Of a DNA stretch of 64,000 nucleotides, positions 35,991 through 63,679 are shown piece after piece (position 1 is the first letter of the stretch; each line of letters begins with the position of its first letter). Origin of the DNA: a virus; the IMG/VR virus record IMGVR_UViG_3300045988_149331, positions 1 through 64,000 of that record; one strand, given 5' to 3'. The translations under genes were made by a program, and so were the position numbers. Under the pieces are notes generated by a model. It saw only the letters and a list, made by a program, of their open reading frames with translations. It had not been told where the DNA came from and did no database searches.

Positions 35991-38372
35991 TTATTTCCTT
36001 GTAATTATTTTCGAACGGTTGAACACGATCATGAACGAGTTTCCGCAGTGATTACCGTTAGGCTGGATCATGGCGTCATAACCCTTCAACGCAGCGTATA
36101 CACCCAATACCTCGTCACACGATCGTGCGGCTTGATATATTCCGGCATAAATGTCCTTGTCGGGATTTCCGACGCTGTTGGTAGCCAATTTTCGGGCTGC
36201 ATCACGCTTTTCCTGATAGATACGGAAGGCGTCAGCGCGTTCCTTTTGAAGACGGTTTACTTCGTCGTCGAGATTATTGACAGCCTCCTTGACAGCTTCT
36301 TCGATACGGCCGTAGTGCTCGCGCATGATCCATTCCTTAAACTGGCGGACGGGATAGTTGTACGGACGTGAAAAGCCGCTTTTGCGCTTAATAGCGTTAT
36401 TCTCGTACCGGTAACGCGAGAACAGAAAACGCTCCGTAGTATTCGGCATTTTGATGACCAAATCACCACTCCCGTTGTTCTTCTCGGTAATAGTACCGCC
36501 ATTGGCCGTTACCCAGCCGCGGAGGTGGTTGTTCACGAAATCGTCAAATTTCATATAGTCCGGGTTGCCGTCATCGTCGATAGCACCCCAGTCGATGATC
36601 TGATCAATCTGCAACGGGATGTCCTTGTAGGCAAAGTCGTCCCAATGCATGTTGGCCTTAACCTGCTTTTCGGTAGTGTTGGTTAGGGTGTTCAGTTCTT
36701 GAGACAACTTGTTGTAGTTATCCTCCGCGTCTTGCTGCTCCTTAAGAGCCTTCTTGGCTGCAGGAGAAGTGGTGAGCGGCAGTTTCTGAATTTCATCACG
36801 AGCGTCTTGAACGGTAATCACCTTGGCGGAATCATCCAGTACAGCTTCGATGATAGCCCCGTTGTAACCAGCGTAACCACGGGCGTTTTTGTAAGACGAT
36901 GTGTGCTTGTACCCCGACGGCGTTTTATTGGCGTTATCAGAATCGTTGACGTGGAAATAGATTCCTTCGCCGTAAATACCTTGCGTACCGTAGAAACACG
37001 CGTCGTTGTACTTGAAGTCGTCAGCGTAATATTCCGTATCACTGCCGCGCACATTAACGCCACGGAACAGATGGTATTTTGACTGCGCCACCTTGGCCCA
37101 GAAGGTATTATCATCTACAACGTCAGGACGCACATCGAAACCGCGGGCCTTGCAAATATTGGACAGCATCTCCCATCCTACCTGATTATTGGTATTGGTT
37201 AACTTGTCCGCAGCACTGATTCCGCTGACGCTACTGTAGATTTCCGCCAACTCATCATCGGTGAACTCGCGGTACATTTCCGCATCCGGTTTCAGAGTTC
37301 GCGGCGCAACCTTTCTTTGCTGGCGTTGCAACTCTATCTCGTACTGTCCTCTGATGCGATCAAGGTCTTTGAAACGAGCCTCGATGATAGCACGCATCTT
37401 CGGTTTAGAGGCCAATTTACCAGCGTCGAAAAACGCCAACACCTCGTCTTTGCGTGCCTTTAAGGCGTCAATTTGGTTGATAAAATCCCGCGGCGTAAGG
37501 TTAGCTACAATCTGTGGGTTGTAGCGAACCATGCCGTCCCAGTCGATTTGACTGTTAAAAGGCTTATTGGCGCCTTGTGCTCGGTAGTCGAACGTACCGC
37601 CGTTATCCACGCGATAGACTTTGCCGGCGGCGTCAACCAAGCAGTTGTCATTCTGGTAGATATCCCAGTTGGCCAAAAAGGCATCAACGGCGAAGCCTTT
37701 GGCCATAGCGTCATAGTCCTTGGCCTGCGGCTCACTCATACCGCGCATGTACGGCGAAATAAGCGTCAAATCGGTTCCGTCGTCGTACATTTCATATTCT
37801 GGCGTGTCGAGCCCCAAGAGGTCATAAACCTGCGCGGCGTAGTATTCTGCAGCAACGTGACCGCGATTAGTGTTTTTAGAACTCTTGACGACAAACTCAC
37901 GCCCCTTAGAGTCCTTCATGAGTTTGGCTCCAGTACTACCGCCGAGGTCCTGCACATAGGTGAGGTCTGAAGGATCGGCAGGGAACATCTCGTTCAACTG
38001 CTTCTCTTCCTGAGCCAGCATGGCTTTAGAACGAAAGGCTCCTTTTCCAATAGGTTGGCCGTTGGCGGTCTTGTAAACTCGCCAGTCGTACGTCGTCTTG
38101 GCGTTAGGAGTCAGCGTCCAAATGTACACCACGCCATTCACGACCTTGGTCTGGCCAGGCATGATGGCTTTGGCTATCTCGGGGTCTTGATCGATACCGT
38201 GGATGTGGTCATACACCGATTTGGCGACGTACAGGTTGTACGAATAGTCGTCAGCAAAGTCTTCAGACCGCGCCTTATACGCTTCACACGCCTTCTCCAG
38301 TACGGCATCAGATATCTCGCCCTCAGCGTTACGGAGGGCGAAGACATCGAGTGCTTTTCTGAGTTCATCCAT
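35991..38372 (-). CDS. multidomain candidate packaged effector: protein-kinase-like domain plus ART/PARP-like domain
   Basis: Kinase-like features: 'LGGSTGAKLM', 'EFVVKSS', 'DAFLANWDIYQNDNCLV', 'RVDNGGTFDYRAQG'. ART-like features: 'YHLFRGVN', 'GIYGEGIYFH', 'GAIIEAVL'. Confidence 0.55.
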   Translation of the reverse strand: MDELRKALDVFALRNAEGEISDAVLEKACEAYKARSEDFADDYSYNLYVAKSVYDHIHGIDQDPEIAKAIMPGQTKVVNGVVYIWTLTPNAKTTYDWRVYKTANGQPIGKGAFRSKAMLAQEEKQLNEMFPADPSDLTYVQDLGGSTGAKLMKDSKGREFVVKSSKNTNRGHVAAEYYAAQVYDLLGLDTPEYEMYDDGTDLTLISPYMRGMSEPQAKDYDAMAKGFAVDAFLANWDIYQNDNCLVDAAGKVYRVDNGGTFDYRAQGANKPFNSQIDWDGMVRYNPQIVANLTPRDFINQIDALKARKDEVLAFFDAGKLASKPKMRAIIEARFKDLDRIRGQYEIELQRQQRKVAPRTLKPDAEMYREFTDDELAEIYSSVSGISAADKLTNTNNQVGWEMLSNICKARGFDVRPDVVDDNTFWAKVAQSKYHLFRGVNVRGSDTEYYADDFKYNDACFYGTQGIYGEGIYFHVNDSDNANKTPSGYKHTSSYKNARGYAGYNGAIIEAVLDDSAKVITVQDARDEIQKLPLTTSPAAKKALKEQQDAEDNYNKLSQELNTLTNTTEKQVKANMHWDDFAYKDIPLQIDQIIDWGAIDDDGNPDYMKFDDFVNNHLRGWVTANGGTITEKNNGSGDLVIKMPNTTERFLFSRYRYENNAIKRKSGFSRPYNYPVRQFKEWIMREHYGRIEEAVKEAVNNLDDEVNRLQKERADAFRIYQEKRDAARKLATNSVGNPDKDIYAGIYQAARSCDEVLGVYAALKGYDAMIQPNGNHCGNSFMIVFNRSKIITRK

Positions 38373-38378: not shown

Positions 38379-40136
38379 CTATTCGAACAACAGGGTTTCT
38401 GCCTTTTCGATCGACATTTCATCAACGTGGAGTGCGCCAAGATCAATCTCTTTGGCCTTCCACGTATCAGGGATCATGTCTTCAGCACCGAGTGTTTTGG
38501 CGCGACGCTTGATCCAGCGGCGAGCGCGTTCGGGGTTCTTAGCGTTGCCGGCGAGGCGGATGGCATTCTTCAGATCAGACTTGTTGCGGATCGGGAACGA
38601 GCCGTCGGGGAGGGCCTCCTTTTTCTTGGCGAGTTTATCGCGCTGCTCTTCGGTGAAATCGGCCTTTTCGAGCGATTCTGCGCCGTTAAGTAACTGCTCG
38701 GCCTTACTGATCGCGTCGGAGGTTTCGATCGGTTGAATGGCCTCATACGCGAGACTCTTCGTCAGCGCACGCACGGCACTCTTCTCCCACTCCTTTTGCT
38801 TCGCACCGATGAGGTTCGTCCACTCACCGCCCTGTTGGGCCATACGGTTAGAACGTTCCGTAGAGCGTTTTTCTGACAGAATGGTACCGAAAGTACGGGT
38901 GGTAAACTTGGCGGGATCGATCTTATCCTTATTCTTGACGATCAAATCGAACAGCTCTTGGCGTTCGGCCTTGTCCTCTTCAGGATCGTCAAGGTGAGGT
39001 GCCTGAGGTACGTCCATACTGGCGAATCGGTCTTTTAGTACCTCGATAGTTTCATCAACCGTCAGGTACACCTCCGACGAAAGCGTAGCGCGGCTGATGA
39101 TAGCTTTAGTATCTTCGTTCTTGGCGAGGTTCACCAAGTCCTTGTTGGTCATGATGATGATACGTCCCGTGAATACGAAATTCGACTTGACGTCTTCAGG
39201 GTCGCCGACGACGCGTTTACCACTGGCGGCAGTAGCTTTCTTCATGATAGAAGCCAGGTCGGCGCGGGTGATAACGGAATCGGTATCGTCGAACAGCAGA
39301 ATCTTGCCGTTGTGGGCCTTGAGTACGCCCAACAGCTGCTTCTTGGAGTTGATATCACCAAGTTCAACGTAGTCATAATCGCCGTCGCCAGGGGCGTCGG
39401 TCTCAGCGTCAAACGGACGCTTGTTGAGCAGTTCGGCGATCTTCTTGAAACCGTACGACTTACCAACGCCTGCGCCTCCGGCCGAGATCATGAAGCGTTG
39501 CTCCTTGTTGTCCAAGAACTCCAGATACTGGCGGTTCAGGTCGTACATTACCTCAACGGGCGGCTGGTAGTCGGGGTCCTTACGCTTCATCTTGTAGACG
39601 AAACGGTCGTAGGCGATACGGTCTTGGCGGTTCTGGAGTTTGTTGAATTTCTTCTGAACACGCGGGTCCTCGGGGTTGAGGAACCAGTCTTCCATAATCT
39701 CGCCATCGACGTTTTCACCTTCGCCGTCGTTAATATCAACCTTGTCTTGGGCGTTAGTAGGCGCAACGTCGTCCTGCTTGGAGGTCATCTTCAGCAGCGC
39801 GTCGAGTGTACCGGAGGTATCAACAGCCGAAGCGTCGAATTCGTCACGCGTCTTCAACTCCTCATAGGCAATCTTACGCAACTGCGCGTTGCCCTTGGGG
39901 TTGTTTACTACTTTGAGCAGATTGTCTGCGGAGGTACGCTTGGCCCACTCTTCAAGGCTGGCGGAACCGCCAGCAGAACCCGATTTACCTTCGTCGGCGG
40001 CAGGAGCCTTCTTGTTCTTGGCGTTTTTGTCGAGACGCCAGTTGAACTTTCCTGGCTTGTATTCGGTCCAAACCCACGGCTGTGTAGGGTGGTGGTCGCC
40101 GACGTTGTGTTTTGCTTTTTGGATAATGTCTGACAT
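38379..40136 (-). CDS. AAA+/P-loop ATPase domain protein with N- and C-terminal extensions
   Basis: Walker A 'SAGGAGVGKSY', Walker B 'KILLFDDTD', sensor-1-like 'IIIMTNK'. Confidence 0.6.
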   Translation of the reverse strand: MSDIIQKAKHNVGDHHPTQPWVWTEYKPGKFNWRLDKNAKNKKAPAADEGKSGSAGGSASLEEWAKRTSADNLLKVVNNPKGNAQLRKIAYEELKTRDEFDASAVDTSGTLDALLKMTSKQDDVAPTNAQDKVDINDGEGENVDGEIMEDWFLNPEDPRVQKKFNKLQNRQDRIAYDRFVYKMKRKDPDYQPPVEVMYDLNRQYLEFLDNKEQRFMISAGGAGVGKSYGFKKIAELLNKRPFDAETDAPGDGDYDYVELGDINSKKQLLGVLKAHNGKILLFDDTDSVITRADLASIMKKATAASGKRVVGDPEDVKSNFVFTGRIIIMTNKDLVNLAKNEDTKAIISRATLSSEVYLTVDETIEVLKDRFASMDVPQAPHLDDPEEDKAERQELFDLIVKNKDKIDPAKFTTRTFGTILSEKRSTERSNRMAQQGGEWTNLIGAKQKEWEKSAVRALTKSLAYEAIQPIETSDAISKAEQLLNGAESLEKADFTEEQRDKLAKKKEALPDGSFPIRNKSDLKNAIRLAGNAKNPERARRWIKRRAKTLGAEDMIPDTWKAKEIDLGALHVDEMSIEKAETLLFE

Positions 40137-40171: not shown

Positions 40172-40981
40172 CTACACCTCCACCGCGTCAAAGTCAATAT
40201 CAAATTTCTTGTACACAATTCGCAACTCCGGTACGCCGTTAATTGGCTTCTTCTTTTCGTCAATACGAGCGTTCAACGGCCAGCGCTTGAGTATGATGTC
40301 GTGCGCCCGCTGCACGCGCTCCTGGCGTTCGTATACGTCTTGGAGACCGCCGCCCTGGTTGGCTTCCTTGTTCATCTTACTCTGGAGAAGGAACCGCACG
40401 AACCGCGCGTAGACGATTCCCAGGTACATGCATTTCAACGAATAGTCGATGTCGCATTTCAACTCCAACTTTTCGTCAAAGTCCAGTTCCAGCGTCCGTA
40501 GCCCCTTGAAGACGATCAAGTGTGGAATACCGCCGTACTTGAAGCGCGGGCTGACGTCGGTACAACTCCAGTCGAAGGCGCTCTTGCCCATCGTTCCATA
40601 CTCAAAATCGGTTTCCATGACCTCGCGATCAAACTCCTCAAAGAACTCGCTGAGTTCTTCCGGCGTTTTCAACGACAGCCCACACTTGGCTTCACCGTCG
40701 ATCGAGTAGAAGAAGTTGGCGATGTCGTCATCCATCACCACCACCGGGTGGTTCTTGCGGAGGTAGGTGTTCTTGCAGAAATTTACCACGTAGCTGTAGC
40801 CGCGGTTCGAGGCCGGCAGCACAATCAGCCGCTCACGGGCGTGACCCGCTTCGACGTATTTTTCAACGTCCTCCTTTTCGACCACAATATTGTAGTCAAC
40901 GCCGCCCTTTTCCAACAGTTTAGTCGTGACGCACTTGGGGCGGTTCTTGGACACGACGAAGAATTGACAGTTCATACTCAA
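40172..40981 (-). CDS. GT-A-like glycosyltransferase (TET/JBP-associated-GT-like), paralog of 57887..58702
   Basis: 'FFVVSKNRPKCVTT', 'VVVMDDDI', 'KMNKEANQGGGLQDVYE...RWP'. Each aligns with the corresponding segment of 57887..58702. Confidence 0.5.
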   Translation of the reverse strand: MSMNCQFFVVSKNRPKCVTTKLLEKGGVDYNIVVEKEDVEKYVEAGHARERLIVLPASNRGYSYVVNFCKNTYLRKNHPVVVMDDDIANFFYSIDGEAKCGLSLKTPEELSEFFEEFDREVMETDFEYGTMGKSAFDWSCTDVSPRFKYGGIPHLIVFKGLRTLELDFDEKLELKCDIDYSLKCMYLGIVYARFVRFLLQSKMNKEANQGGGLQDVYERQERVQRAHDIILKRWPLNARIDEKKKPINGVPELRIVYKKFDIDFDAVEV

Positions 40982-41658
40982 AAGGGTAATTCACCTTCGG
41001 ACCATATTTCCTCGGGTGGGTTTTGTTCTATGAAACGTTGATATTTGTCTATCGTAGGCTCCAGCGACGGGTAGAACCTAAAGGCAAGTTCCCACTTGAC
41101 GTCAAACATATCGTCGCACGGGACTTTGCGCTTCATCAACACATTTTCGTTGTTGTAGCACTGAATTGTGACTTGCTGACGGCCACGCGAAGTGTACGAA
41201 TAGGGAAAGTCGCGATAGTACTCAGCCAGCGAAACCGTATCTTGAACAACGTCGTGAATGAACTGATTGAAGGGGTGTCCCAGCCCCAACGGCGCCAATA
41301 CGGTATAACCACGGTTGCGTCGTAGGAAACGACGCAAATGGTCGCGAAGCGTTTGTTCGGCGAAATTAAGCGTGTCAGTTCCGTATTTAGTTCTGAGGTA
41401 CGTATAGACGCTGGAGAGATTAAAGTCCTTGAAATGGTCGCCAAAATCGCTACAAATCGCATCTTCGAACCCAGTGTCGAAGACATCCATCGTAATACCC
41501 ATGAATTCATAGAGCGATCGCTGTTCTACAACGCGGTTTGGGTCGCTATCTACAGTAAGCACCCGAACGTCATATTCGGGTGCTACTAAAACGTGACAAG
41601 CGCTCATCAGGAGATCACCCGCGTGAGGCTCGACACACAGGTACTTTATTTTTCCCAT
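40978..41658 (-). CDS. PIG-L/LmbE-like deacetylase
   Basis: 226 aa. 'KYLCVEPHAGDLLMS' (HxxD strand, compare AHPDDE), 'VRVLTVDSD', 'GLGHPFNQFIHD'. Confidence 0.45.
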   Translation of the reverse strand: MGKIKYLCVEPHAGDLLMSACHVLVAPEYDVRVLTVDSDPNRVVEQRSLYEFMGITMDVFDTGFEDAICSDFGDHFKDFNLSSVYTYLRTKYGTDTLNFAEQTLRDHLRRFLRRNRGYTVLAPLGLGHPFNQFIHDVVQDTVSLAEYYRDFPYSYTSRGRQQVTIQCYNNENVLMKRKVPCDDMFDVKWELAFRFYPSLEPTIDKYQRFIEQNPPEEIWSEGELPF

Positions 41659-42605
41659 GGCCGCTTGTAGATTTTCTCAGCGCAGGGGCCGTCTTTCGAC
41701 ACGTCCTCAGCCATCTTCCGGATTTCCGGCGTGATAGGCGGCAGCGTTTGCTTACCCATTTTGTCAGGCAGGAAGCCGACGCGGACGCTTACGTGCGTAC
41801 ACCCCTGACACGGGCGGAAGCGGCGGTCGTTGTTGTACAGCATGACACGGGCGGCGTGAAAGCGCGGGTGGTTCCACAGGTCTTCGATGGGCATGTCGTG
41901 GATGTTGGCGATTGGGTACTCACCGCGGAAGTCATCACAGCACAGACACACCTGGCCATTCCACCTCACGTCCAGTTCGCGGAACGGGAAGGTGCACCGC
42001 TTGTTGTTGAACGAATCGTCAAGCGGGAAGGCCGCGCCGCAGTGGTTGGCCAGGCGACGTGTCATCTTGTTGGTGTCGTCGTGGGCGATAGGCGGCAGCA
42101 AGCAGATACGACGGCCCTGCTTGGGGTAGTAGTACGGAACGCCGGGTTCCAGCGTCACGACGTTGTACTTATCAACATCGATCTTCTCGACGAAATTCCA
42201 GTCGCCGTTGGCCGTGTAGCAGTCCACCAGAATATCGTTCATACCTGCTCCGAACAGCGCGTCGAGGTACGCCTCGGTGTCTTCAGCGTGGTTCATGGCG
42301 TAACCGTTACTGTACATATGAAACACAGCCTTCGGCAAGTGCTTGCGGAACGTGGCGACGATGTCGATGAAGGCAGGATTCAGCGTCGGTTCGCCGTGCA
42401 TAGCGAACACGAACTTACAGTTCCAACCCACCCGCGCTACCTCCGAAGCAATACGCTCGGCCGTTTCGACGGTCATGAAATTCCAGGGCTTGGTCCCCTT
42501 TTCACGCATACCGTGTAAACCGCAGAACGAACAACCGAGGTTACAGCCCTCGGTAGGTTCAATCTGCATGGTAAACGGGGGGTCTTGTACGATTTTGTTT
42601 TTCAT
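41646..42605 (-). CDS. radical SAM enzyme with a Cys-rich SPASM/twitch-like C-terminal domain
   Basis: CxxxCxxC 'EGCNLGCSFCG'. C-terminal 'RCTFPFRELDVRWNGQVCLCCDD...RPCQGCTH'. Confidence 0.8.
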   Translation of the reverse strand: MKNKIVQDPPFTMQIEPTEGCNLGCSFCGLHGMREKGTKPWNFMTVETAERIASEVARVGWNCKFVFAMHGEPTLNPAFIDIVATFRKHLPKAVFHMYSNGYAMNHAEDTEAYLDALFGAGMNDILVDCYTANGDWNFVEKIDVDKYNVVTLEPGVPYYYPKQGRRICLLPPIAHDDTNKMTRRLANHCGAAFPLDDSFNNKRCTFPFRELDVRWNGQVCLCCDDFRGEYPIANIHDMPIEDLWNHPRFHAARVMLYNNDRRFRPCQGCTHVSVRVGFLPDKMGKQTLPPITPEIRKMAEDVSKDGPCAEKIYKRPWEK

Positions 42606-43537
42606 TATTTTGTAACTTTAATGTTGAGTTTCACGTTCTTTAACTTTGGGTCTTTGAACTGACGCTTGACGGGCTTGGTGAAAGCGCGGGTTGCGGGGTC
42701 CCAATCGAAATTATCAGGCTTGTAATTAACCTGACACCGGCAGTAGGGGTGCGTCGGGTTAATCGTAGGGAGCCACTCTGCCGCCTTACGACCGATGTTG
42801 TTACCGTTAGCGATAAGGTCCGCCAAACGGAACAGTTTCGGTTTCGAGGTAGGGTCCTCGGGGTCTTCTAAGTACAACTCCCGGCACTTAGCGCACGCGC
42901 CTGGATAGACGTCGAAATACACTTTGGCGTCAGGCCCGTGTTGCTTGAAAATACTTTCAGCACGGCCCACGTTGTAGGCTTCGTGCAGGAGATAGTACGC
43001 AATACGCAGCCAATCGCGTCCCCAGTCTTGGGTAAGGTTTCCCAGTTCGCTGGCTACATAGCGCGCCCCCTTACGGAGTTGAACGGCTTGAATGGCCTTA
43101 TCTTTGATTTGCTGGCGTATAGCGGCCTGCTGACGGAAATTCGACTTGAGGATGGTGTTGCGTGTCCCGGTGACGATACGGTTGCCAAGCGATGTGATGT
43201 CGGTGTAGGCGCGGTTCTTGAGGTAATTGAGGGCGTTCTCTTCCTGTTCAGTGAGCGGTACAAAGTTTCCTGATTTCAAGAACTGAAGAAACTGTTTGTA
43301 GTTCATCTTCTTGGCGCGGGTATCGCCGATAGCCTCAGCCAAGATTCCAAACAGAAAGGCGTGTTCGATTATACCCTTAGAGTTCTTGTACTTATCGACG
43401 TTGACGCCTGACGCCACCAAGATGTCGATCTCCGACTGGGTCAGAAAATCCAATCCGACGTGCTTAGCAATAAACAGGTACTGCCAGCGCCGGAGAATAC
43501 CGACCATGTCGTCTATTTGGCGGTTATTGAAAATCAT
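42605..43537 (-). CDS. MuF-like (SPP1 gp7 family) minor head protein
   Basis: C-terminal 'INPTHPYCRCQV' matches the PxxHPNCRC signature of the Phage_Mu_F family. Confidence 0.7.
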   Translation of the reverse strand: MIFNNRQIDDMVGILRRWQYLFIAKHVGLDFLTQSEIDILVASGVNVDKYKNSKGIIEHAFLFGILAEAIGDTRAKKMNYKQFLQFLKSGNFVPLTEQEENALNYLKNRAYTDITSLGNRIVTGTRNTILKSNFRQQAAIRQQIKDKAIQAVQLRKGARYVASELGNLTQDWGRDWLRIAYYLLHEAYNVGRAESIFKQHGPDAKVYFDVYPGACAKCRELYLEDPEDPTSKPKLFRLADLIANGNNIGRKAAEWLPTINPTHPYCRCQVNYKPDNFDWDPATRAFTKPVKRQFKDPKLKNVKLNIKVTK

Positions 43538-44678: not shown

Positions 44679-44850
44679 CTTCCTTTAATTCTTTTACCGC
44701 CGCAGCCGTAGCGTCGGCGATGTATTTTAGTACATCGCCTAACGCAGCGGCGTTGTTGGCGTTCCATTCGCGGATAAACCGATCTTCGTACTGAGTAACG
44801 GTGGGGAATGGCGACGGCAAAAAGTGGGTATGTTTGGCGTTGTAAGGCAT
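44632..44850 (-). CDS. hypothetical small protein
   Basis: 72-aa ORF with a 1-nt overlap with the upstream gene. Confidence 0.4.
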   Translation of the reverse strand: MPYNAKHTHFLPSPFPTVTQYEDRFIREWNANNAAALGDVLKYIADATAAAVKELKEDGPKKNNLGRVSSEG

Positions 44851-46604
44851 TACTCTTGTTTGCTATCTTCCGGCAACCATTCCATTAAGACACGATTTCC
44901 TTCAATCTTATGGACCTTATAATTTTGGTCTCGGCCAATTAAAAATTCCCCCTCCTCTCCTCCGTAAACCCCTACTACTGGAGCAACCGGGCAACCCGCG
45001 GGAGCGATAATATCAAAATACATAGTCCCCTCGTCGTTGCTAATTTCAGGATAACATGTAGTGCTCATGAACGACTTATCGCTGAACACCTCCCCCTCCT
45101 TGAGATTTTTAACGAAATTATCTGCATCGTTTTCAAACGTAAGTTTCCTGTATAAAACGATATTTTGTCCCACTTTATTTTGAGAAATAAACGTATCAAT
45201 TCCGTTTATGAATTTATCCATTTTATCAGACGATACATCGACTTTGTTGCCGTAAAGGTATTTTCTCATTACAGCAAAGTCAAGATCATCATCTTCGTCA
45301 AAATCGTCATCATGGTCTGCGGAATATAAAACAATAGCTTTTACTGCATCCGAATCGCTTTCGTCCATGAAATCCTCATAAGCGTCAACAATCTTATCAA
45401 AGAATTCAGTTGCATCGTCGCTGTTTAATCGTATGAATTTTTCGCCGTTTATGTCCAACCCACTTTTCCGTAAAGCCCATTTGTACGCTCTATCGGCCTT
45501 TTTGAGAACTTTTTCATTCGCCTTGTCAGAGGGTAATCGCTCAATGTTTTTCGCAGTACTGTCGCCTGATAATGAAATATTAAAACGTTCATTATCTGCT
45601 TCAAATTTCTTTTGTTCTTCTGCTTTTTCCCTTTTAACATCCTCGCTTTTTACCCAAAAAGCGATAGCGTCGTCTTTTGTGTCTTCAGGCACGATATTAT
45701 TTCTTTTCAAGACATCAATCGCCTTTTTAGATAATTCTTCGGGGGTTAATTTATACTTTGAATACTGTTCGTCGGTCTTTCGTAATTTACTCAAAAAGAT
45801 GCCAGCTATCGTCTTTGGTGTATCGCTACCTCGTACTTGATCCAGCAAATCTTTTTCGAATTTCTCATCAACGGCATCTTCGTCTTTATTGTCGTCATCC
45901 TTTTCACTACCCTCCCTGGCGTCAGGATCGCCGAACTTGGACGCGGCTCCCTCGACGTCAGCGATCTCCTTCACCGTCGTGGTCTCGAAATTGTCAACAT
46001 CGGCGTAGGGGTATTTGTCCACGCGGTAGCCTTCGCTGGTCTTGGTGACTACCAGATCGAAGCCGTCTTCGTCGCCGCCGACCTGCTTGATGAACGCGTG
46101 AGAAGCGTCTTCGACTCCAGCGTACTGCTCCAGGTCCTGGTCGTCCATCTGACGGAAGCCCATGGACTCAAACGAGGCCGTCGCCTTGGCGTCACCGTCA
46201 GCCAGGCCGTTACGCAACGAGGCGTCGCCCTTCTTGTTCTTGGCGCGAACGTTCACGCCGCGGCGTTCGAGTTCTGCGGTGGCCACCTTGCGCATTTCAG
46301 CGTCAGCCGACGGATCGTTAGCCACTTTCACCAACGCCTCCTCCGAAGCCGAGCGGGCATGATTCTGGAGGCTGACGTTGCCTCCGGGAACGCCACCTTC
46401 ACCCCCCTCAGCCGCGGGGTCTTTCTCCTTGGCTGCGTGACCGTACTCCTGACCCACACGTTGCAAGCGGCGGTTTTGAGCGTTGTCGGTGTATACACCG
46501 TGACGCGCTTTTTCGATTTCTACCTCTTCAGTTTCGGGGATGTTGACGAACCCCTTGAGGATTTGCTGTCGTTTTGCCTCACCGTAGTTGATAATCTCTT
46601 TCAT
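44850..46604 (-). CDS. candidate packaged effector with a C-terminal R-S-E ADP-ribosyltransferase domain (Alt/C3-like)
   Basis: 'NIVLYRKLT' (Arg), 'KSFMSTTCY' (S-T-T), 'GGEEGEFLIG' (ExE). The N-terminus carries 'EKARHGVYTDNAQNRRLQRVGQEY'. Confidence 0.65.
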   Translation of the reverse strand: MKEIINYGEAKRQQILKGFVNIPETEEVEIEKARHGVYTDNAQNRRLQRVGQEYGHAAKEKDPAAEGGEGGVPGGNVSLQNHARSASEEALVKVANDPSADAEMRKVATAELERRGVNVRAKNKKGDASLRNGLADGDAKATASFESMGFRQMDDQDLEQYAGVEDASHAFIKQVGGDEDGFDLVVTKTSEGYRVDKYPYADVDNFETTTVKEIADVEGAASKFGDPDAREGSEKDDDNKDEDAVDEKFEKDLLDQVRGSDTPKTIAGIFLSKLRKTDEQYSKYKLTPEELSKKAIDVLKRNNIVPEDTKDDAIAFWVKSEDVKREKAEEQKKFEADNERFNISLSGDSTAKNIERLPSDKANEKVLKKADRAYKWALRKSGLDINGEKFIRLNSDDATEFFDKIVDAYEDFMDESDSDAVKAIVLYSADHDDDFDEDDDLDFAVMRKYLYGNKVDVSSDKMDKFINGIDTFISQNKVGQNIVLYRKLTFENDADNFVKNLKEGEVFSDKSFMSTTCYPEISNDEGTMYFDIIAPAGCPVAPVVGVYGGEEGEFLIGRDQNYKVHKIEGNRVLMEWLPEDSKQE

Positions 46605-51993: not shown

Positions 51994-52317
51994 TCAACCC
52001 AACATTTTCAAAATGTCGTTGCAGGCCGTTTTCCTGATTATCAACGCTTGATGAACGATATCTCCCCACACCGCCAACTGATGACCGCGCCATGAGTAGT
52101 AGTCGGTTTGGTCATCGTACGAACCTTGCCACTCGCCTTCGCTGCGTATAGTAGCCACCAAACGGCGAAATGCTCGCTGTTCGTCGGTAGTGAGGGGTGA
52201 TATAAAAGTGCCGACGACTACTAATCGTGCGGCACTCGTTGTTAGATCATCGGCTAACGTTTGAAAGTTAATGCCCATGAACTCACCTGTCTCTAATGGG
52301 GTATGAAAAGTTATCAT
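51994..52317 (-). CDS. hypothetical protein
   Basis: 107-aa ORF with a 4-nt overlap with the upstream gene. Confidence 0.5.
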   Translation of the reverse strand: MITFHTPLETGEFMGINFQTLADDLTTSAARLVVVGTFISPLTTDEQRAFRRLVATIRSEGEWQGSYDDQTDYYSWRGHQLAVWGDIVHQALIIRKTACNDILKMLG

Positions 52318-53324
52318 TCGCCAACCAATTTTACAGTTCGTGGTTCAAAAGTAGAGCGTTGCTTACCTTCACCGATGCGCATCTTCCAGTATTTTTGATA
52401 TTCACACAACCACATCTCGATCTGGTGAAGGGTTATATTGCCGTGAGGCGTTGTGTAATATCCTGCTTCGAGTTTGTGCCAGTGTAGGTACGGAAAATCT
52501 CCAAATGTCGCCAACGCCACCTGCGCTTCATCACGCAGACGATAGATACCGTCAATTTGACGTTTCAACGACGGGAATATTAACCGCAACCCAATCGACG
52601 CCCCAGGCCCCACGTTAGTGTAGTCATCCTGAGTGAAACGCATGAAACGCCGATATGTATATCGCGGTATATAGGTGAAATCTTGATAGAATTCGTGAGC
52701 GATGAATGCAGCCGATGACGGAAGCCCCTGAAGGAACTTGATGATCTGTTCAGGAGTTTGGGCCGTAAATACCATCTTGATGAGTTCACCCAAGCGACGG
52801 TGTAACGTAGGCACTACCAGATGGGTGTAACAGTAATCACGCGGTTTACCCGGCGTGGCCATGGAATTGATGAGATATGCCGTGGTGTAGGGGTTGTTCC
52901 CCGAAGCGCGGTACGACGTTATCATCTCTGCAAAAGCGTCTTCGTCGTAGCTGTCGTAATCTGGAATACCAGCGCCCCAGCCATACTTATCGCGAGCGTA
53001 TTCAAAAGTACTGGGGTTGTTGAAATACCGGAACACCATCATCTTCCACACCAAGCTGGCTAACGACAATGAATCATCCAACAGAATATTTCGAATTTGC
53101 CACTGGGAATTTCGATCCAGTTCGCGGTACACGTTAGTGAACTTGTAGTCGCGCAAAATAGGGTCTTCAGTCCAGGGGCGTGGTTGGTGATCGATGAAAC
53201 GTCGTTTCCAGATCATTTGCCGCTCAAACATCGTGCGAAAGAACTCCGTGCGGTGTTCGTCGCTCACGTCAAGCGTATCAGATGGGAGTTTGTCACTCCA
53301 AGAATAGTGATCAAAGTTTGCCAT
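52314..53324 (-). CDS. aGPT-Pplase-like protein (putative thymidine hypermodification transferase family)
   Basis: 'FERQMIWKRRFIDHQPRPWTEDPILRDYKFTNVYRELDRNSQW' matches my recollection of the family's N-terminal signature (R..G.P.PWT.DPIL..Y+FTNV.R.LDR.(S/T)). Predicted all-helical, 336 aa. Confidence 0.5.
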   Translation of the reverse strand: MANFDHYSWSDKLPSDTLDVSDEHRTEFFRTMFERQMIWKRRFIDHQPRPWTEDPILRDYKFTNVYRELDRNSQWQIRNILLDDSLSLASLVWKMMVFRYFNNPSTFEYARDKYGWGAGIPDYDSYDEDAFAEMITSYRASGNNPYTTAYLINSMATPGKPRDYCYTHLVVPTLHRRLGELIKMVFTAQTPEQIIKFLQGLPSSAAFIAHEFYQDFTYIPRYTYRRFMRFTQDDYTNVGPGASIGLRLIFPSLKRQIDGIYRLRDEAQVALATFGDFPYLHWHKLEAGYYTTPHGNITLHQIEMWLCEYQKYWKMRIGEGKQRSTFEPRTVKLVGE

Positions 53325-56482: not shown

Positions 56483-56758
56483 TTAACAATCCATCACTAA
56501 ATTTCCCGCCAACTCCAACTCATACAACCGTTCAGCATCAGGCTTGGCGTAACAGAATATCAACTTTCCACCGCCCGCAGCCCGCAACGCTTTACGATAC
56601 GTCGCCTTGATGCGGGCCAACTCTTCGCTTCGGTAAAAATCGTAGTCGCTTACACACAACTCCCACCACCGCTCTTGCCGCGACGCCCAGGCTATGACTC
56701 CTGGGCGTTCGGCTTCAATCCGCTTTACAGCAGCTAATAACAGCGCGTCGTGTTTCAT
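56483..56758 (-). CDS. hypothetical protein
   Basis: 91-aa ORF. Confidence 0.5.
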   Translation of the reverse strand: MKHDALLLAAVKRIEAERPGVIAWASRQERWWELCVSDYDFYRSEELARIKATYRKALRAAGGGKLIFCYAKPDAERLYELELAGNLVMDC

Positions 56759-57342
56759 AACGTTTCGTCGATAGACTGCGCCAACTCAGCCAACAGCCTT
56801 ACGTGTACGCGCTCGTCGGCGATAATCTTGTTGAGGAGTTGAACCGCCAACGTAGAAGTAGTGGTCGGCGTAGGGTTGCCTGCTTGGATGCGCTGGATGA
56901 GTTTTTCGTACTCAGCGATGGTGTCCTGCTCGGCGCGAATATTGATCTGGATGGCTTCAGCCGCGCTTTCGGTCGTTATGTCCACTTTGGCTGCCGAAAA
57001 CACAGGCTTCGATACCGCGTGACCCAGATGGTGAATGAAGTCGCCTAATCGGTCGTAGTGCTTCATCTCGGTGAGGGCGATACCCAGGAACGTTTCGCCA
57101 ATCTGATCGAAAAGCATCCGCTGTTGGGTGTATTGGATGATGGCGGTGAGTTCGGACGTTCCGGTAATTCCGGCGTAGACTTTGTAGAACCACTCGGCCG
57201 GAACGCCGTCGTCGGCTTTAGCCTTGGAGATGTCGGGATAGTCAATCGCGTGGTCGGCGTAACGCATCGACTCTACCAGCGCGTCGGCCATGATTTCGAC
57301 GTTGTCCTGCTTGGCGGGTTGGTGTACGAGAATCGTTTTCAT
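56755..57342 (-). CDS. ferritin-fold di-metal protein, CotJC / Mn-catalase-like
   Basis: Four-helix pattern 'SELTAIIQYTQQRM', 'IALTEMKHYDRLGDFIHHLG', 'NIRAEQDTIAEYEKLI', 'IIADERVHVRLLAEL' (two E...ExxH pairs). 195 aa. Confidence 0.55.
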   Translation of the reverse strand: MKTILVHQPAKQDNVEIMADALVESMRYADHAIDYPDISKAKADDGVPAEWFYKVYAGITGTSELTAIIQYTQQRMLFDQIGETFLGIALTEMKHYDRLGDFIHHLGHAVSKPVFSAAKVDITTESAAEAIQINIRAEQDTIAEYEKLIQRIQAGNPTPTTTSTLAVQLLNKIIADERVHVRLLAELAQSIDETL

Positions 57343-57344: not shown

Positions 57345-57890
57345 CTATTTGGTTTCAGGTTCTTGGCTCTTGACGGTCGATCCCCATCCTGCTTCGCCGC
57401 GAGCGCTGGGCGTGAGTTCTTCGACGAGTGTAGGTTCAATCAACGGCGCAGGCACAATCACCAGCTGAGCAACGACGTCGCCCTTCTTGTACGCCTTACA
57501 TTCGTACGACAGCTCCCGCATTTTGAAGTCGGCGATAGTCCCTAAGACGTTGGAGAACAACACCGCCAAACACCGCGACATACGCTGCCACAGCGTGGGC
57601 ATGTGATAGATCTTTTTGTAGCGTACCAGCATCTCGCCACGGTACCCCGGGTCGATAATACCCGGCGCGTTACACATCACCAGGTCCATCTTCGACACGC
57701 GCGAGTTGGGGACCAGCAACCCGCTGTACCCTTTGGGAATTTCAACGGCGATTCCCGTCTGGTACTCGATGAAATCTTCGGTTTCGCGTACTCCAACGGC
57801 TACCAGGTCCAAGCCGTTATCCTCGCCATCGGCGTGGGCATACGCCGGCAACGTGGCGTTGGGGTTGAGTTTCTTGAATTTTACGTTCAT
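57345..57890 (-). CDS. dut: trimeric-type dUTPase with an internal insertion
   Basis: Five motifs present: 'NGLDLVA', 'PNSRVSK', 'GIIDPGYRGEM', 'VVAQLVI', 'RGEAGWGST'. Confidence 0.8.
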   Translation of the reverse strand: MNVKFKKLNPNATLPAYAHADGEDNGLDLVAVGVRETEDFIEYQTGIAVEIPKGYSGLLVPNSRVSKMDLVMCNAPGIIDPGYRGEMLVRYKKIYHMPTLWQRMSRCLAVLFSNVLGTIADFKMRELSYECKAYKKGDVVAQLVIVPAPLIEPTLVEELTPSARGEAGWGSTVKSQEPETK

Positions 57891-58702
57891 TTCTTGTATC
57901 CTTTTAAGTGTATTTTGACCTCGATCATCTCACGGTCCTTCATTTCACCACCCCAGTTGGTACACTTTTTGGTACGGAGGGTGATGTACTCGGGGAACGC
58001 TTCTCTTAAACGTTGTGATTCGGCGTTGGAGTTCTCGATCGTACGATAAATCGAACAACCACCAGCGGCGTTGGCTCCCGTCATTTTGTCGAACGAATAC
58101 TGATACGAGACGATATTATCCAACCCCGCGCGGCGTAATCCACACGCCACGGCGAAATCCTCCTTTATGGGCCAATCGCTGAACCTGACAGGCTGACTTA
58201 GATACTGGGCGATATTGAGGCCCCAAATGGAGAAGAACCGCCCGTTTATTTGTACGTCGTGTTCCTTGTCGCGGTTGAACGGACGGTATGAAAGCGCAGC
58301 CACGGCGTAGGTGTCTAACTGCTCAGCCACCCAGTCGAACATCATCTGGTAGATGTATTCCTGCGCCTCGACGGTGAAATTGTCGTTGTTTACGACCACA
58401 GGGGTCTTGGCATCGTCTAAACGCAACGAGAAAGACACGTTATCGTCTAAGAAAAAGACTCCTCCAAATCCCCTATCAACGGCCTCTACAACAATATAGT
58501 CCCGTATGTCCCCCACGCCGCGACACGCCGTACTGTATTCCTCGATACTGGCTACTTTTCCACCCCAGTTGCGCTGGTGAGCCGCCAACTCGCCGGGGTG
58601 ACAGAATATGTGGACGCGCTTCAACGCTTCAGGCGTCAACCGTTGAAGAGTTTTTTGGCGGTCAACACGACCTCGTGTGAATAAGGCTATCAGAGTTTTC
58701 AT
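57887..58702 (-). CDS. GT-A-like glycosyltransferase, paralog of 40172..40981
   Basis: 'LIALFTRGRVDRQKTL', 'VFFLDDNV', 'KMTGANAAGGCSIYRT...EAFP'. Confidence 0.5.
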   Translation of the reverse strand: MKTLIALFTRGRVDRQKTLQRLTPEALKRVHIFCHPGELAAHQRNWGGKVASIEEYSTACRGVGDIRDYIVVEAVDRGFGGVFFLDDNVSFSLRLDDAKTPVVVNNDNFTVEAQEYIYQMMFDWVAEQLDTYAVAALSYRPFNRDKEHDVQINGRFFSIWGLNIAQYLSQPVRFSDWPIKEDFAVACGLRRAGLDNIVSYQYSFDKMTGANAAGGCSIYRTIENSNAESQRLREAFPEYITLRTKKCTNWGGEMKDREMIEVKIHLKGYKK

Positions 58703-58721: not shown

Positions 58722-61442
58722 CTAACCTAACATGTCGAACTTAAATCCCGTCGTCATACGCGAAGCCGCCAAGTCAGCCAACCAGAACGAAGACGAAATA
58801 TCGTCATGACTGCCGACGCTCTCCAGCCCCTTTTCGGTGAAGGCTACTGAACCGAGGTCTTGGAAGATGAGGTCCTTGACCTGCTGTGAATAGACGTTCC
58901 CCACCGGGATGTGAATCTTACCGCGTTCGAACAGCGTCGATAGGTGGGGCCATCCGGTCTTGAGGTCATATTTGTCGATTCCAGTTGTATGGCCGATGAC
59001 GGGCATCCCTTCGGTATCAGCTGTTTCGACGAATATCTGCTGAAAGGTGTTATTCTCCATCACGATCAGGTCAGGCCGGAAACGGGAATTTATACGCCGC
59101 AAGACATTCATCTGCTCGAAGAACTTGGCGCCTTTTTCGCGGTAAAGGTGAAGCAGCCAACGCTCATCAGTCAGTTCGTCAATACCCCACACGCTGAATA
59201 CCGCGTAGTCAGCGCCGACGTTGGCTGAAATAGCGAAGTCACAGCCAACGACTACCTTGGAGAACTTGATGGGGAACTCTTCGCGTGAATCCACCAGCGT
59301 GTATTTCTCCATCCTCAGCAGCGACCGCGTGAGAATTTCCATCGGGAAAATAGACGATTCGTTGGTGATCGGGCGGCAAAGGTTCTCGCGCGAGAAGATG
59401 ATCGACCCCTGGGTCTCCTTTTTATCCATCAGATCCTTAAACGACCAACGCTGCGGCCACAATATTCGCCCGTTGGGGAAGATGGCCGGATATTCGATAA
59501 CGAACCAACCGTTCTTGGTCTTCAGGTCGCCATAAAGGTCTTCAGCGTGAAACGGTGTACCGACGACGATAATTTGGCCGCCAGGTACGAGCATGTTCAT
59601 AATTACGGAGTGGAAATAGTCGGTGGATTTGTTCCGTTGGAGAGCCGAATAGATGACGTTATCCTTCAGACCATCATCGACGATAATCCAGTACGGGTGA
59701 GCGCCACGCACCGAAGAACCAAAACCCTTGCCTGTCAAACGCGCGCCGTTACGGCACACTATATTGGTAGCTGACCAGTTGGCTGACGTTGACTGAGGAT
59801 AGAGTCGTTCCTTCAAGATTTCGTTTTCCTCGATGGTACCCTTCAGAATCTCCAAAAGGTCAACGCTCTGTTGTAACGAGAACGAAAACAGAAATCCGCG
59901 GTTCGACGACGCCACGGTGGGACGCTTCGAATAACGAACGCTTGACGGCTTTTTGTAGCGGTACAACTGCCACGCTGCGTAGGCGTTGGAGAAGTAGAAC
60001 GAGTTGTGAGCAACCGTTCCGTCGCCCAGTACGAAGCGATGGTCGCCATCGGTGGTGATCGAGACATATTCCCCTTCGCCAACAGGCGTGATCTTCAACG
60101 ACGATACCACCGTAGGGTGAACACCATCGATAGTTCCCCAGTCTTTGTGTGACGTCTTGGTAGACCAGTCGGTTTGGACCTTTTTACGGGCTATTTTCAC
60201 GGGGATTCGATCCAGTTCGCCAGAAATAGTTACACACCACGACGAATAGTCACGCCCTAACGCCTTACAATACCGCGTTCCACCGCCCATTCGCGTACAG
60301 AAGCCAAGACTGTCGGCCAGGTTCTTCACGTCACACACCAGCTGGTAGTTCGTATTACCGAAGTGATAGCCACCCTGCCAGTAGTTACCGTCGGAATCGA
60401 TCAACCCAGCCAACACCTGGAGGCGGACTGCTTCGCTGTTGACGAGATACTGCTCTGGAATGTGTTTATTGTAAAGCAGGTTGTAGCCCTTCAACACCCT
60501 TTCAATCGGGTTACGCTTACCGCGACCCCGAACGCCGACTCCAAGCGTCACGACAAGTCCCTTTTGGCTGTAGCGAAGCCCCGTGCGCTCGGCGTAGCCG
60601 CGGAGATATTCACGCACTTCAGGGTCGGCGGTGGTGATCTTCTGGTTGTTGGAGTTGCCGTCACCTAACCAGTACCCCAAGAAATACGGCTCCAACGTCA
60701 CAGGCCGTGCTGGATATTGTACCGCTACCTTGAAACCACGATAACGTTCCTTGATCCAGTTGGGGGTCTTACTTAACAGGGTCGGCATATCAATGTCCAC
60801 TATCCGCTTCGACGCTGTATCGATGGAGCCGTTGCGGTCCTTTTCGATCAGCGTACAAATGTGACGCGAATTGACCGTGTAACTATCACCGCGCGACTGG
60901 TCGATACGGTACATCGTGGAATCGTGACCGCGGTGCGTAGCCACCACACGGCGTGGTGTAGAGTTGATACCCATCAACAGATCGCCAACCACAACGTCTT
61001 CTACCCTCTTGATGGTTCCGTCGTACATCCTCACTGGTGTTCCAACAGCCTCACATTTCCCGTGGTCACGAGCAGCGTTGATACACAGTTTCTTGTGCTG
61101 GTGAACTAAATCGCCCCACTCCAGGTGGTGCCACGATAGTTGAAAGTCGGGGATAACGGAAGTGATGAAATACGTCAAATTGGCACACCGCAGCGTGTCT
61201 TCCACCACGGCAGAAATATTCTCTTCATAGCGCGGCTTAAAGTCGATCGACGCGTCACCTGTGTACATCACCTTGTAGGTGTCTTCCATCAACGCCGCGA
61301 ATATATCGTCAACATCGTGTGAGTCGCCACTCATCAACTCATTCAGTCCGCGCTCATCCAGCCCCTCGATTATTTCATCAACGAGGTCCAGGCACGCCAA
61401 ACGGTGCGTCACCGACGGCGATATAATAGTGTCTAAACCCAT
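58722..61442 (-). CDS. terL: terminase large subunit interrupted by an intein
   Basis: Exteins join to give Walker A 'AARDHGK|S'. Walker B 'YWIIVDDG'. C-terminal nuclease-like part 'VVVGCDFAIS'. 906 aa minus the 351-aa intein leaves 555 aa. Confidence 0.85.
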   Translation of the reverse strand: MGLDTIISPSVTHRLACLDLVDEIIEGLDERGLNELMSGDSHDVDDIFAALMEDTYKVMYTGDASIDFKPRYEENISAVVEDTLRCANLTYFITSVIPDFQLSWHHLEWGDLVHQHKKLCINAARDHGKCEAVGTPVRMYDGTIKRVEDVVVGDLLMGINSTPRRVVATHRGHDSTMYRIDQSRGDSYTVNSRHICTLIEKDRNGSIDTASKRIVDIDMPTLLSKTPNWIKERYRGFKVAVQYPARPVTLEPYFLGYWLGDGNSNNQKITTADPEVREYLRGYAERTGLRYSQKGLVVTLGVGVRGRGKRNPIERVLKGYNLLYNKHIPEQYLVNSEAVRLQVLAGLIDSDGNYWQGGYHFGNTNYQLVCDVKNLADSLGFCTRMGGGTRYCKALGRDYSSWCVTISGELDRIPVKIARKKVQTDWSTKTSHKDWGTIDGVHPTVVSSLKITPVGEGEYVSITTDGDHRFVLGDGTVAHNSFYFSNAYAAWQLYRYKKPSSVRYSKRPTVASSNRGFLFSFSLQQSVDLLEILKGTIEENEILKERLYPQSTSANWSATNIVCRNGARLTGKGFGSSVRGAHPYWIIVDDGLKDNVIYSALQRNKSTDYFHSVIMNMLVPGGQIIVVGTPFHAEDLYGDLKTKNGWFVIEYPAIFPNGRILWPQRWSFKDLMDKKETQGSIIFSRENLCRPITNESSIFPMEILTRSLLRMEKYTLVDSREEFPIKFSKVVVGCDFAISANVGADYAVFSVWGIDELTDERWLLHLYREKGAKFFEQMNVLRRINSRFRPDLIVMENNTFQQIFVETADTEGMPVIGHTTGIDKYDLKTGWPHLSTLFERGKIHIPVGNVYSQQVKDLIFQDLGSVAFTEKGLESVGSHDDISSSFWLADLAASRMTTGFKFDMLG
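60003..61055 (-). mobile_element. intein with a LAGLIDADG homing endonuclease domain (aa 130-480 of TerL)
   Basis: Starts with Cys (TGT at 61055..61053, after Lys). Block B 'NSRH'. Two dodecapeptides, 'LGYWLGDGN' and 'LAGLIDSDGN'. Ends 'VAHN' (AAC at 60005..60003) followed by Ser +1. Confidence 0.9.
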
Positions 61443-63525: not shown

Positions 63526-63607
63526 CACCCGAGTTGCCGTTCCTATTTACACTCCCGAAACTGCCGACAATGGGCGAACTGCCACAACATTCCGTCGGGT
63601 GAAAAAG

Positions 63608-63679
63608 TTGATCTGGAAGGGTTCGAACCTCCAATACGAGAACCAAAATCTCGTGTGTTGCCCATTACACCACAGATCA
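63608..63679 (-). tRNA. tRNA-Gln (anticodon UUG)
   Basis: Hand-folded cloverleaf, 72 nt, no encoded CCA. Acceptor TGATCTG/CAGATCA (7 bp). D arm GTGT-AATGGGCA-ACAC. Anticodon arm CGAGA-TTTTGGT-TCTCG. Variable TATT. T arm GGAGG-TTCGAAC-CCTTC. Discriminator A. Confidence 0.85.

Follow-up and report, generated by a model that had tools for sequence, protein, structure and literature searches.

We analyzed a 64,000-nt window (the whole stretch of DNA examined here) of IMGVR_UViG_3300045988_149331, an uncultured ~100-kb phage. Three consecutive minus-strand genes of this window encode a radical S-adenosylmethionine enzyme (rSAM), a protein with a predicted PIG-L/LmbE fold (the middle open reading frame, ORF) and a glycosyltransferase (GT) of the TAGT family (TAGT1). 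Taken together, the sequence evidence tips towards this trio being a cassette that tailors sugars in a DNA hypermodification pathway based on 5-hydroxymethyl-deoxyuridine (5-hmdU). The trio and the genes that bear on its function are listed below, with the basis of each assignment in brackets.

41646..42605, minus strand: rSAM with one predicted C-terminal auxiliary [4Fe-4S] domain of the twitch/SPASM type, BtrN-like (Pfam, orthologue profile)
40978..41658, minus strand: middle ORF, predicted variant paralog with the PIG-L/LmbE fold, HAGD...HPFN (AF2, Foldseek, family profile)
40172..40981, minus strand: TAGT1, putative TAGT-family GT-A-like DNA glycosyltransferase (Pfam TAGT, phrog_842)
57887..58702, minus strand: TAGT2, putative second, very divergent TAGT-family GT (Pfam TAGT, phrog_842)
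52314..53324, minus strand: aGPT-Pplase clade-1-like / "HMUDK helical domain" protein (Pfam HMUDK_hel)
57345..57890, minus strand: putative dUTPase (Pfam dUTPase)
42605..43537, minus strand: upstream flanking gene ("MuF" of a preliminary description of the window), coupled to the rSAM gene by TAATG (synteny)
38379..40136, minus strand: downstream flanking gene, 585 aa (synteny)

Gene Context Points to 5-Hydroxymethyl-Uracil DNA

The window shares an identical 518-aa helicase with a near-identical relative, L092. L092 also encodes a 408-aa Thymidylat_synt homologue beside PolIII-alpha, approximately 5 kb from the helicase gene on the side that would lie beyond the left end of the window, and the best phage matches of this protein are the SP10 dUMP hydroxymethylase (47%) and SPO1 gp29 (46.7%). 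The product of 57345..57890 matched Pfam dUTPase (2.3e-9) and, below the cut-off of the model, NCBIfam dut (1.5e-19). The presence of a dUTPase would be consistent with dUTP/dTTP exclusion in a 5-hmdU phage.

The product of 52314..53324 matched Pfam HMUDK_hel (3.9e-51) and aligned to the C-terminal, non-kinase half of SP10 gp186, the region termed aG/PT-PPlase1 (Lee 2018); the label "aGPT-Pplase-like" given in the preliminary description was accurate. The gene would be a marker of thymidine-hypermodification clusters. A function as 5-hmdU DNA kinase (5-HMUDK), which the Pfam name suggests, was rejected, because the protein maps to the non-kinase half of gp186 and has no Walker A motif or P-loop. 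The portal protein is closest to those of a Chryseobacterium phage and of SPO1-like Herelleviridae.

On these matches, the phage very probably makes 5-hydroxymethyl-uracil DNA. The preliminary description had left the target of the trio between phage DNA and a virion or host macromolecule. DNA is favored by the dUMP hydroxymethylase of the relative, the dUTPase and the aGPT-Pplase1-like gene, the acceptor of the TAGT enzymes being itself predicted.

Two TAGT-Family Glycosyltransferases Vary Together

TAGT1 matched a single Pfam family, TAGT (PF20691), over profile positions 3-203 of 205 (5.3e-13, 49.8 bits vs. a cut-off of 27.5), as well as phrog_842 ("beta-glucosyl-HMC-alpha-glucosyltransferase") at 1.1e-16, and carries an acidic DxD-type motif (DDD at residues 82-84). 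The earlier guess of a GT-A-like glycosyltransferase was borne out by this match to the TAGT family, above the Pfam cut-off and at near full length. TAGT2 matched the near-complete 205-position TAGT profile (1.1e-12, 48.8 bits vs. 27.5) and phrog_842 at 4.4e-27. Pairwise comparison of TAGT1 and TAGT2 revealed no similarity, which rules out TAGT1 as a recent duplicate of TAGT2. The TAGT family includes a T6-type enzyme thought to add a second glucose to glucosyl-5-hydroxymethylcytosine (5hmC) (PMC13390438), and phage TET-cluster GTs attach N-acetylglucosamine (GlcNAc) to 5hmC DNA (PMC8256090).

Among related contigs, TAGT2 was detected solely where TAGT1 was present. It is missing from four close relatives with a GT-B-like gene, in which the terminase is followed directly by the dUTPase, and the cassettes of L134 and L086 themselves contain a TAGT2 orthologue (33% identity, 1e-51). 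TAGT1 and TAGT2 appear to be gained or lost as a pair, in alternation with a single GT-B-like enzyme; since the four contigs of the GT-B type are close relatives of one another, the alternation may represent only one or two evolutionary events. The proposed connection of the trio with the GT paralog at 57887..58702 is strongly supported by this joint gain and loss and by the orthologue in the L134 cassette. The GT-B-like alternative (~480-495 aa) had Pfam matches to GT-B families only, all of them sub-threshold, and no match among PDB sequences, PHROG or NCBIfam.

The Cassette Consists of a Conserved Pair and an Accessory rSAM

We compared 80 IMG/VR loci and ~10 ENA/Logan contigs, all from one group of ~100-kb phages. 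Their shared gene order is aGPT-Pplase1-like, portal, …, "MuF-like", cassette, 585-aa protein. In every related locus that reaches the upstream side, the gene next to the cassette is an orthologue of 42605..43537, and wherever a locus extends far enough downstream, the cassette is followed by an orthologue of 38379..40136. The product of 42605..43537 had no Pfam or PHROG match, which leaves the label "MuF" without a family match, and the 585-aa protein gave weak AAA-type matches and phrog_1250 only.

Within the cassette the PIG-L-like gene is constant, and a GT lies downstream of it wherever that region was readable. This GT is of the TAGT1 type in the window clade, L086, L088 and L134, or else is the GT-B-like protein. 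The rSAM gene adjoins the PIG-L-like gene in about half of the loci. Natural fusions join the rSAM to the PIG-L-like protein (P0015) and the PIG-L-like protein to a TAGT1-type GT (P0022 and P0019). Together with the synteny in ~90 related contigs, these fusions show that the members of the trio are functionally linked, and they predict an interface between the proteins. Since the PIG-L-like gene and a GT stay constant while the rSAM adjoins them in only about half of the loci, this pair appears to be the conserved unit and the rSAM an accessory tailoring enzyme. The trio as such, whose co-occurrence the preliminary description had proposed to check, did not hold as a conserved unit.

Besides the rSAM, the optional genes of the cassette are FkbM-family methyltransferases, an N6/N4 methyltransferase and GIY-YIG/NUMOD3 homing endonucleases. 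FkbM sugar-type methyltransferases lie within the cassettes of L083, L086 and L134. In L001 (11686-12393) and L061 (11672-12379) an N6_N4 DNA methyltransferase is embedded, in the order PIG-L-like, rSAM, methyltransferase, GT-B-like; its presence there may be circumstantial further support for a DNA substrate. GIY-YIG/NUMOD3 homing endonucleases are found between the PIG-L-like and GT-B-like genes in L028 (10682-11416), L049 (10635-11327) and L052 (10672-11349), and a 225-aa insert in the L080 cassette (10675-11352) is assigned to the same class from its size. These inserts mark the cassette as a mobile-element hot spot.

Mosaicism was also seen elsewhere. In most close relatives (L117-L132) the dUTPase is 66-67% identical to that of the window, vs. 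94% for TAGT2 and 95-97% for the rSAM. The IMG/VR contig ..._145915 is a mosaic relative of this kind, with a middle ORF 100%, a TAGT2 94% and a dUTPase 66% identical.

Comparison of the trio with 50,697 GenBank phage records by blastn and tblastn found nothing at the DNA level; the middle ORF and TAGT1 had no match, and the rSAM had only remote ones, in its N-terminal part. Among these records there appears to be no cultured phage with this cassette. Campylobacter phage IBB35 (L094, NC_041831.1) was rejected as an analogue: LmbE-like and rSAM genes are present, but they are not adjacent in the contig compared. Campylobacter Firehammervirus phages encode an LmbE-like protein (a BFVD match) and rSAM proteins weakly similar to that of the window. 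One protein of the phage analyzed here is indexed in 423 blocks of a public metagenome collection, and the phage appears to be common in public metagenomes.

The rSAM Has a Twitch-Like Auxiliary Domain

The product of 41646..42605 matched Pfam Radical_SAM (PF04055; 1.8e-15, 58 bits vs. a cut-off of 29.5) and Pfam SPASM (2.6e-12, 47.3 bits vs. 21.5). In nine orthologues (43-87% identity) the CxxxCxxC motif (C21-x3-C25-x2-C28) is invariant, as are only five Cys of the C-terminal part (C204, C222, C223, C266 and C269). When the orthologue profile was compared with PDB, BtrN was the best match (2.1e-14, covering the core and the twitch domain), and anSME was second (2e-5). Counted through the profile alignment, C204/C222/C266/C269 align with BtrN C169/C187/C232/C235, which we take to be the auxiliary-cluster ligands of BtrN.

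A SPASM domain has 7-8 Cys and two clusters, and a twitch domain, as in BtrN, four Cys and one cluster. Because only five C-terminal Cys are invariant and four of them match BtrN positions, the auxiliary domain is predicted to be twitch-like, with one cluster, rather than a full SPASM domain. The earlier assignment to radical SAM enzymes with a SPASM/twitch domain agrees with both Pfam models, each above its cut-off, and with BtrN, a carbohydrate/aminocyclitol dehydrogenase, as the predicted closest solved relative. The kinship appears to be remote, and we do not file the rSAM as a BtrN orthologue (2-deoxy-scyllo-inosamine dehydrogenase). A tblastn search with the rSAM against the phage records revealed no M6-like or SP10 match at E<=1e-3, and the enzyme is apparently unrelated to the SPL-like rSAM of phage M6 (gp53 type).

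The Middle ORF Has a PIG-L/LmbE Fold with a Variant Active Site

By itself, the middle ORF had no Pfam (even at E<=1), PHROG or NCBIfam match. A word-indexed search found homologues in 11 clusters, and an exhaustive profile search 87 representatives. An AF2 model from a 51-sequence alignment (pLDDT 94.5, pTM 0.91) superseded a first model from nine sequences (pLDDT 68), which had given generic Rossmann matches. Foldseek placed 2xad_A (Orf2*, an LmbE-family teicoplanin deacetylase) as the top and sole significant match in PDB (E 2.6e-7, TM 0.59); in BFVD, the orthologue aside, the top neighbors were viral "GlcNAc-PI deacetylase / LmbE-like" proteins. The 51-sequence hidden Markov model matched Dbv21/Orf2* over the full length at 1e-13 to 1e-15 (Dbv21, 5.5e-15). 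Pfam PIG-L (PF02585) was matched by 16 of the 51 family members and by 4 of the 22 core members, and a profile of the 22 core sequences alone reached Dbv21 in PDB at E 0.02 only. The PIG-L assignment is thus a model-based one, drawn from transitive profile matches and fold without direct sequence similarity. The homology to PIG-L/LmbE would be remote, yet fold and motifs both support it.

The LmbE active site consists of H-x-D1-D2 and a further His, with His, D2 and His binding the metal and D1 acting as the general base (PMC4101496). Most phage relatives of the middle ORF have the canonical (Q/S)PHSDD…GHP(F/M)H, and the window protein reads PHAGD…GHPFN at those sites. When mapped via Dbv21 H16/D18/D19/H161, H12 and D2 (D15) are kept, D1 is replaced by Gly14 and the third His by Asn131. 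The PIG-L/LmbE-type deacetylase proposed earlier therefore stands as to fold (AF2, Foldseek 2xad) and fails as to the zinc-ligand strand. Because the general-base Asp and the third metal-ligand His are absent, canonical Zn-dependent de-N-acetylation by the window copy seems unlikely, and the earlier idea that a sugar is deacetylated to a cationic amino sugar in this phage is doubtful. In relatives with the canonical motif, de-N-acetylation is plausible.

In the same genome pairs of the window clade, the ratio of nonsynonymous to synonymous substitution rates (dN/dS) was 0.10-0.22 for the middle ORF vs. 0.02-0.06 for the rSAM and 0.013-0.04 for TAGT1. By these ratios, all three genes are under purifying selection, and the middle ORF is maintained under clearly weaker constraint. 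The window-clade PIG-L-like gene might be a decaying relic, with the rSAM and the two TAGTs as the working unit and an N-acetylated or plain hexose as the sugar. Such decay would account for the loss of D1 and the third ligand, for the variability of H12 and H128, for the lowest GC content at third codon positions (GC3) and the highest dN/dS of the neighborhood, and for an N-terminally truncated variant copy in L086. We consider it decidedly unlikely: at dS ~1 the dN/dS values denote clear purifying selection, and the reading frame is intact in all complete window-clade loci. Moreover, HAGD…HPFN is also present in P0013, which is merely 35% identical to the window protein and clusters with the window clade in a neighbor-joining tree (without bootstrap), and in L134 this variant and a canonical HSDD…HPFH paralog of 221 aa lie within one cassette. 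This retention and coexistence point to a distinct retained role, and from them we conclude that the window probably carries a distinct variant PIG-L-like paralog rather than a simply decaying gene.

The variant copy of L086 (7962-8489) encodes 175 aa without the HAGD region, and a canonical copy is present in the same cassette; the shorter gene may be a pseudogene or have an alternative start.

Gene Junctions and Composition

Direct reading confirmed the three coupled minus-strand ORFs (319, 226 and 269 aa, from the rSAM to TAGT1) and two of their junctions. At 42605 the TAA of the upstream gene and the ATG of the rSAM gene share 1 nt (TAATG, coding-strand reading), and the end of the rSAM gene and the start of the middle ORF overlap by 13 nt (ATGGGAAAAATAA, 41646-41658). 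The 4-nt overlap claimed at 40978-40981 (TTGA, joining the TGA of the middle ORF to TAGT1) holds with the TTG start of TAGT1. With an alternative ATG at 40975, two codons downstream, it gives way to a 2-nt spacer, and TAGT1 has 267 aa, the length of several of its orthologues. The true start is probably ATG 40975 rather than TTG 40981; the trio is tightly packed under either. The peptide motifs quoted in the preliminary description were all located in the sequence. A promoter and terminator scan within the trio found nothing above chance and was uninformative.

The GC content is 0.512 for the window, 0.568 for the rSAM gene, 0.482 for the middle ORF and 0.527 for TAGT1, all within the range of the backbone genes; GC3 is clearly lower in the middle ORF (0.54) than in the rSAM gene and TAGT1 (0.75 and 0.74). 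A composition like that of the backbone, from which the preliminary description had concluded that the trio is not a recent insertion, was thus observed, but that conclusion needs a caveat. The slot is a gene-exchange hot spot in the comparative data: close relatives have a GT-B-like gene where the window has TAGT1, and about half of the loci lack the rSAM.

Other Genes of the Window

The large terminase (58722..61442, minus strand, 906 aa) is split by an intein that contains Hint and LAGLIDADG homing-endonuclease domains, and the PolIII-alpha gene of L092 is likewise intein-bearing. Between portal and cassette, 44850..46604 (minus strand, 584 aa) encodes a candidate packaged effector or toxin, whose C-terminal part matched the ADP-ribosyltransferase exoenzyme domain PF03496 (2.2e-9). 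In the window and in every relative examined, the gene directly after that of the dUTPase encodes a ferritin/rubrerythrin-like protein (56755..57342, minus strand, 195 aa), which could be tied to iron or oxidative chemistry supporting the Fe-S enzyme. Downstream of the cassette, 35991..38372 (minus strand, 793 aa) gave a weak match to the N4 virion-RNAP helical domain (0.079). At the right end of the window, a tRNA-Gln gene (anticodon TTG; 63607..63679, minus strand) adjoins a DEDDh exonuclease gene.

A Predicted Pathway on 5-hmdU and the Evidence Against It

In the pathway that we propose, the translationally coupled trio would be expressed late. Thymine would be replaced by 5-hmdU through a SPO1/SP10-type dUMP hydroxymethylase and the dUTPase. 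After replication, as their family suggests, the two TAGTs would place a sugar, plausibly an N-acetyl-hexosamine (HexNAc) from a UDP-sugar, on the 5-hydroxymethyl group and then extend it. The PIG-L/LmbE-fold protein would bind the HexNAc, which relatives with the canonical H-x-D-D...H would de-N-acetylate; the variant copy of the window is more likely a non-canonical or non-catalytic partner. The BtrN-like twitch rSAM would abstract hydrogen from the DNA-linked sugar, and a keto-sugar by oxidation, an epimerization or a dehydration could result. We infer both GlcNAc as the sugar and the radical chemistry. Donors documented on 5-hydroxymethyl-pyrimidine DNA in TAGT/TET-cluster systems are UDP-Glc or UDP-GlcNAc. 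Surveys of sugar-tailoring neighbors name epimerases, secondary GTs and APH phosphotransferases, and no deacetylase or rSAM. In its full form the proposal is a new class of DNA base, namely a 5-hmdU O-glycoside with a HexNAc that is de-N-acetylated (in the canonical relatives) and remodeled by a BtrN-like rSAM, the variant, catalytically rewired PIG-L paralog being a dedicated partner of the rSAM and GT; this we advance only tentatively.

Several observations weigh against a sugar-tailoring cassette for 5-hmdU DNA. The dUMP hydroxymethylase gene is known from L092 and lies outside the window itself. No P-loop 5-HMUDK or clade-2 aGPT-Pplase (amino-acid:DNA transferase, AADT) was seen among the scanned or annotated genes of the window, L001, L090 and L092, in a scan that did not exhaustively cover the ORFs at 3-33 kb of the window and a further ~16 kb of the genome, and with neither enzyme seen, the role of the aGPT-Pplase1-like gene is unexplained. 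The window copy of the PIG-L-like protein is without two of the four H-x-D1-D2+H residues, inside the window clade even position 12 (His, or Gln in some) and position 128 (His, Gln or Asn) vary, and its dN/dS exceeds that of the partner genes 3- to 10-fold. All matches of the rSAM to NCBIfam equivalogs were far below the family cut-offs, and its reaction therefore cannot be assigned; the resemblance to BtrN is due in part to the cluster-binding motifs. The GT-B assignment in relatives comes solely from sub-threshold Pfam matches. Finally, the cassette always lies between a head-morphogenesis-type gene and genes for large proteins with no assigned function, away from the replication genes.

This location, between the MuF-like head gene and large uncharacterized proteins in the portal-to-capsid region, would fit a pathway that glycosylates a virion protein (capsid, internal or ejection) and tailors the sugar on it. 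In some mycobacteriophages, GT operons near structural genes glycosylate virion proteins. Glycan pathways in general typically include FkbM-type methyltransferases and GT-B enzymes, and SPASM/twitch rSAMs often act on proteins, anSME being the second-best PDB match. Virion-protein glycosylation nevertheless seems unlikely, though it deserves weight: both GT-A enzymes match only TAGT, whose characterized members act on DNA, TAGT2 lies between the terminase and the dUTPase, and the genome context is that of a 5-hmdU phage. The location is also weak evidence, because other DNA-modification genes, namely the aGPT-Pplase1-like gene and that of the dUTPase, are likewise scattered among packaging genes.

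Comparison with Known Systems

The TAGT/TET-cluster systems (T2/T6 beta-glucosyl-HMC alpha-glucosyltransferase; GT-I/GT-II, Burke et al., 2021; Pyle et al., 2024) share with the window the Pfam family TAGT and the use of two GTs together. They differ in the base, which here is probably 5-hmdU from a pre-replication dUMP hydroxymethylase and there is 5hmC made by a TET enzyme or a dCMP hydroxymethylase, and PIG-L-like, twitch rSAM and FkbM methyltransferase proteins are not among the tailoring enzymes listed for them.

With the thymidine hypermodification systems of Lee and Weigele (M6, ViI, SP10, PhiW-14 and PaMx11), the phage appears to share three features: a dUMP hydroxymethylase gene beside that of the polymerase, a member of the aGPT-Pplase family, and combinatorial tailoring after replication in which an rSAM takes part. 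In contrast to these systems, no P-loop 5-HMUDK or clade-2 amino-acid:DNA transferase was detected here, and the predicted appended group is a sugar rather than an amino acid or polyamine. M6 gp53 is a SPL-like glycinyl-thymine isomerase, whereas the rSAM of the window is twitch/BtrN-like and resembles neither the M6 nor the SP10 rSAMs.

Base J (beta-D-glucosyl-hydroxymethyluracil) of kinetoplastids shares the predicted first step, O-glycosylation of 5-hydroxymethyluracil in DNA. The kinetoplastid base, however, is made post-replication by JBP dioxygenases, and a different GT acts on it; we know of no further sugar tailoring of base J.

The pairs of GT and LmbE-type enzyme (MshA/MshB, BshA/BshB, PIG-A/PIG-L and BtrM/BtrD) resemble the cassette in the invariable pairing of a GT with a PIG-L fold and in the GT-B-like GT of its relatives, and BtrN of butirosin biosynthesis is the closest solved rSAM relative, with all four auxiliary-cluster Cys positions matched. 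In these pathways the acceptor is a small molecule or lipid, whereas here a DNA base is predicted; the GT of the window is GT-A-like, and its PIG-L-like copy departs from the motif as described above. BtrN and the rSAM are no more than remote relatives, and the cassette has no aminotransferase partner. That the cassette makes a small molecule (aminoglycoside-, bacillithiol- or mycothiol-like) or alters a host-surface glycan, for example to block superinfection, would follow the paradigm of GT4 and PIG-L pairs (MshA/MshB, BshA/BshB, BtrM/BtrD) with BtrN (PMC4101496), and the GT-B-like enzyme of the relatives would suit it. We regard this as very improbable: the cassette has no aminotransferase, cyclase or ligase gene, the TAGT family is associated with DNA, and TAGT2, whose neighbors are DNA-packaging and nucleotide genes, co-varies with the cassette. 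The genes apparently belong to a late structural operon, and no lysogeny genes were noticed, in the course of an analysis that included no systematic search for them.

DNA glycosylation and thymidine hypermodification are each already known. In the papers searched we did not find either described in phages as coupled to an LmbE-fold protein and a twitch rSAM, and this coupling appears to be new. The preliminary description had named no characterized phage system with this trio, and none was found in those papers or among the cultured phages of the GenBank set.

Implications for Phage DNA Hypermodification

Phage DNA hypermodifications set resistance to restriction, CRISPR and other nucleic-acid defences, and they are a source of enzymes for epigenomic tools. 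The sugars known from hypermodified DNA are arabinose and hexoses, plain or N-acetylated, and they are attached to cytosine derivatives, whereas the known adducts of hypermodified thymidine are amino acids or polyamines. If the proposed pathway is correct, (i) a glycan on 5-hmdU would join the worlds of sugar and thymidine hypermodification; (ii) an LmbE-fold protein and a twitch rSAM would join the enzyme classes that act on DNA-linked substituents; and (iii) they would be the first LmbE-type enzyme and the first carbohydrate-tailoring rSAM known to work on DNA. The variants of the cassette (a GT-A pair or a GT-B enzyme, with or without rSAM, with or without FkbM, canonical or variant PIG-L) constitute a natural experiment for assigning the steps.

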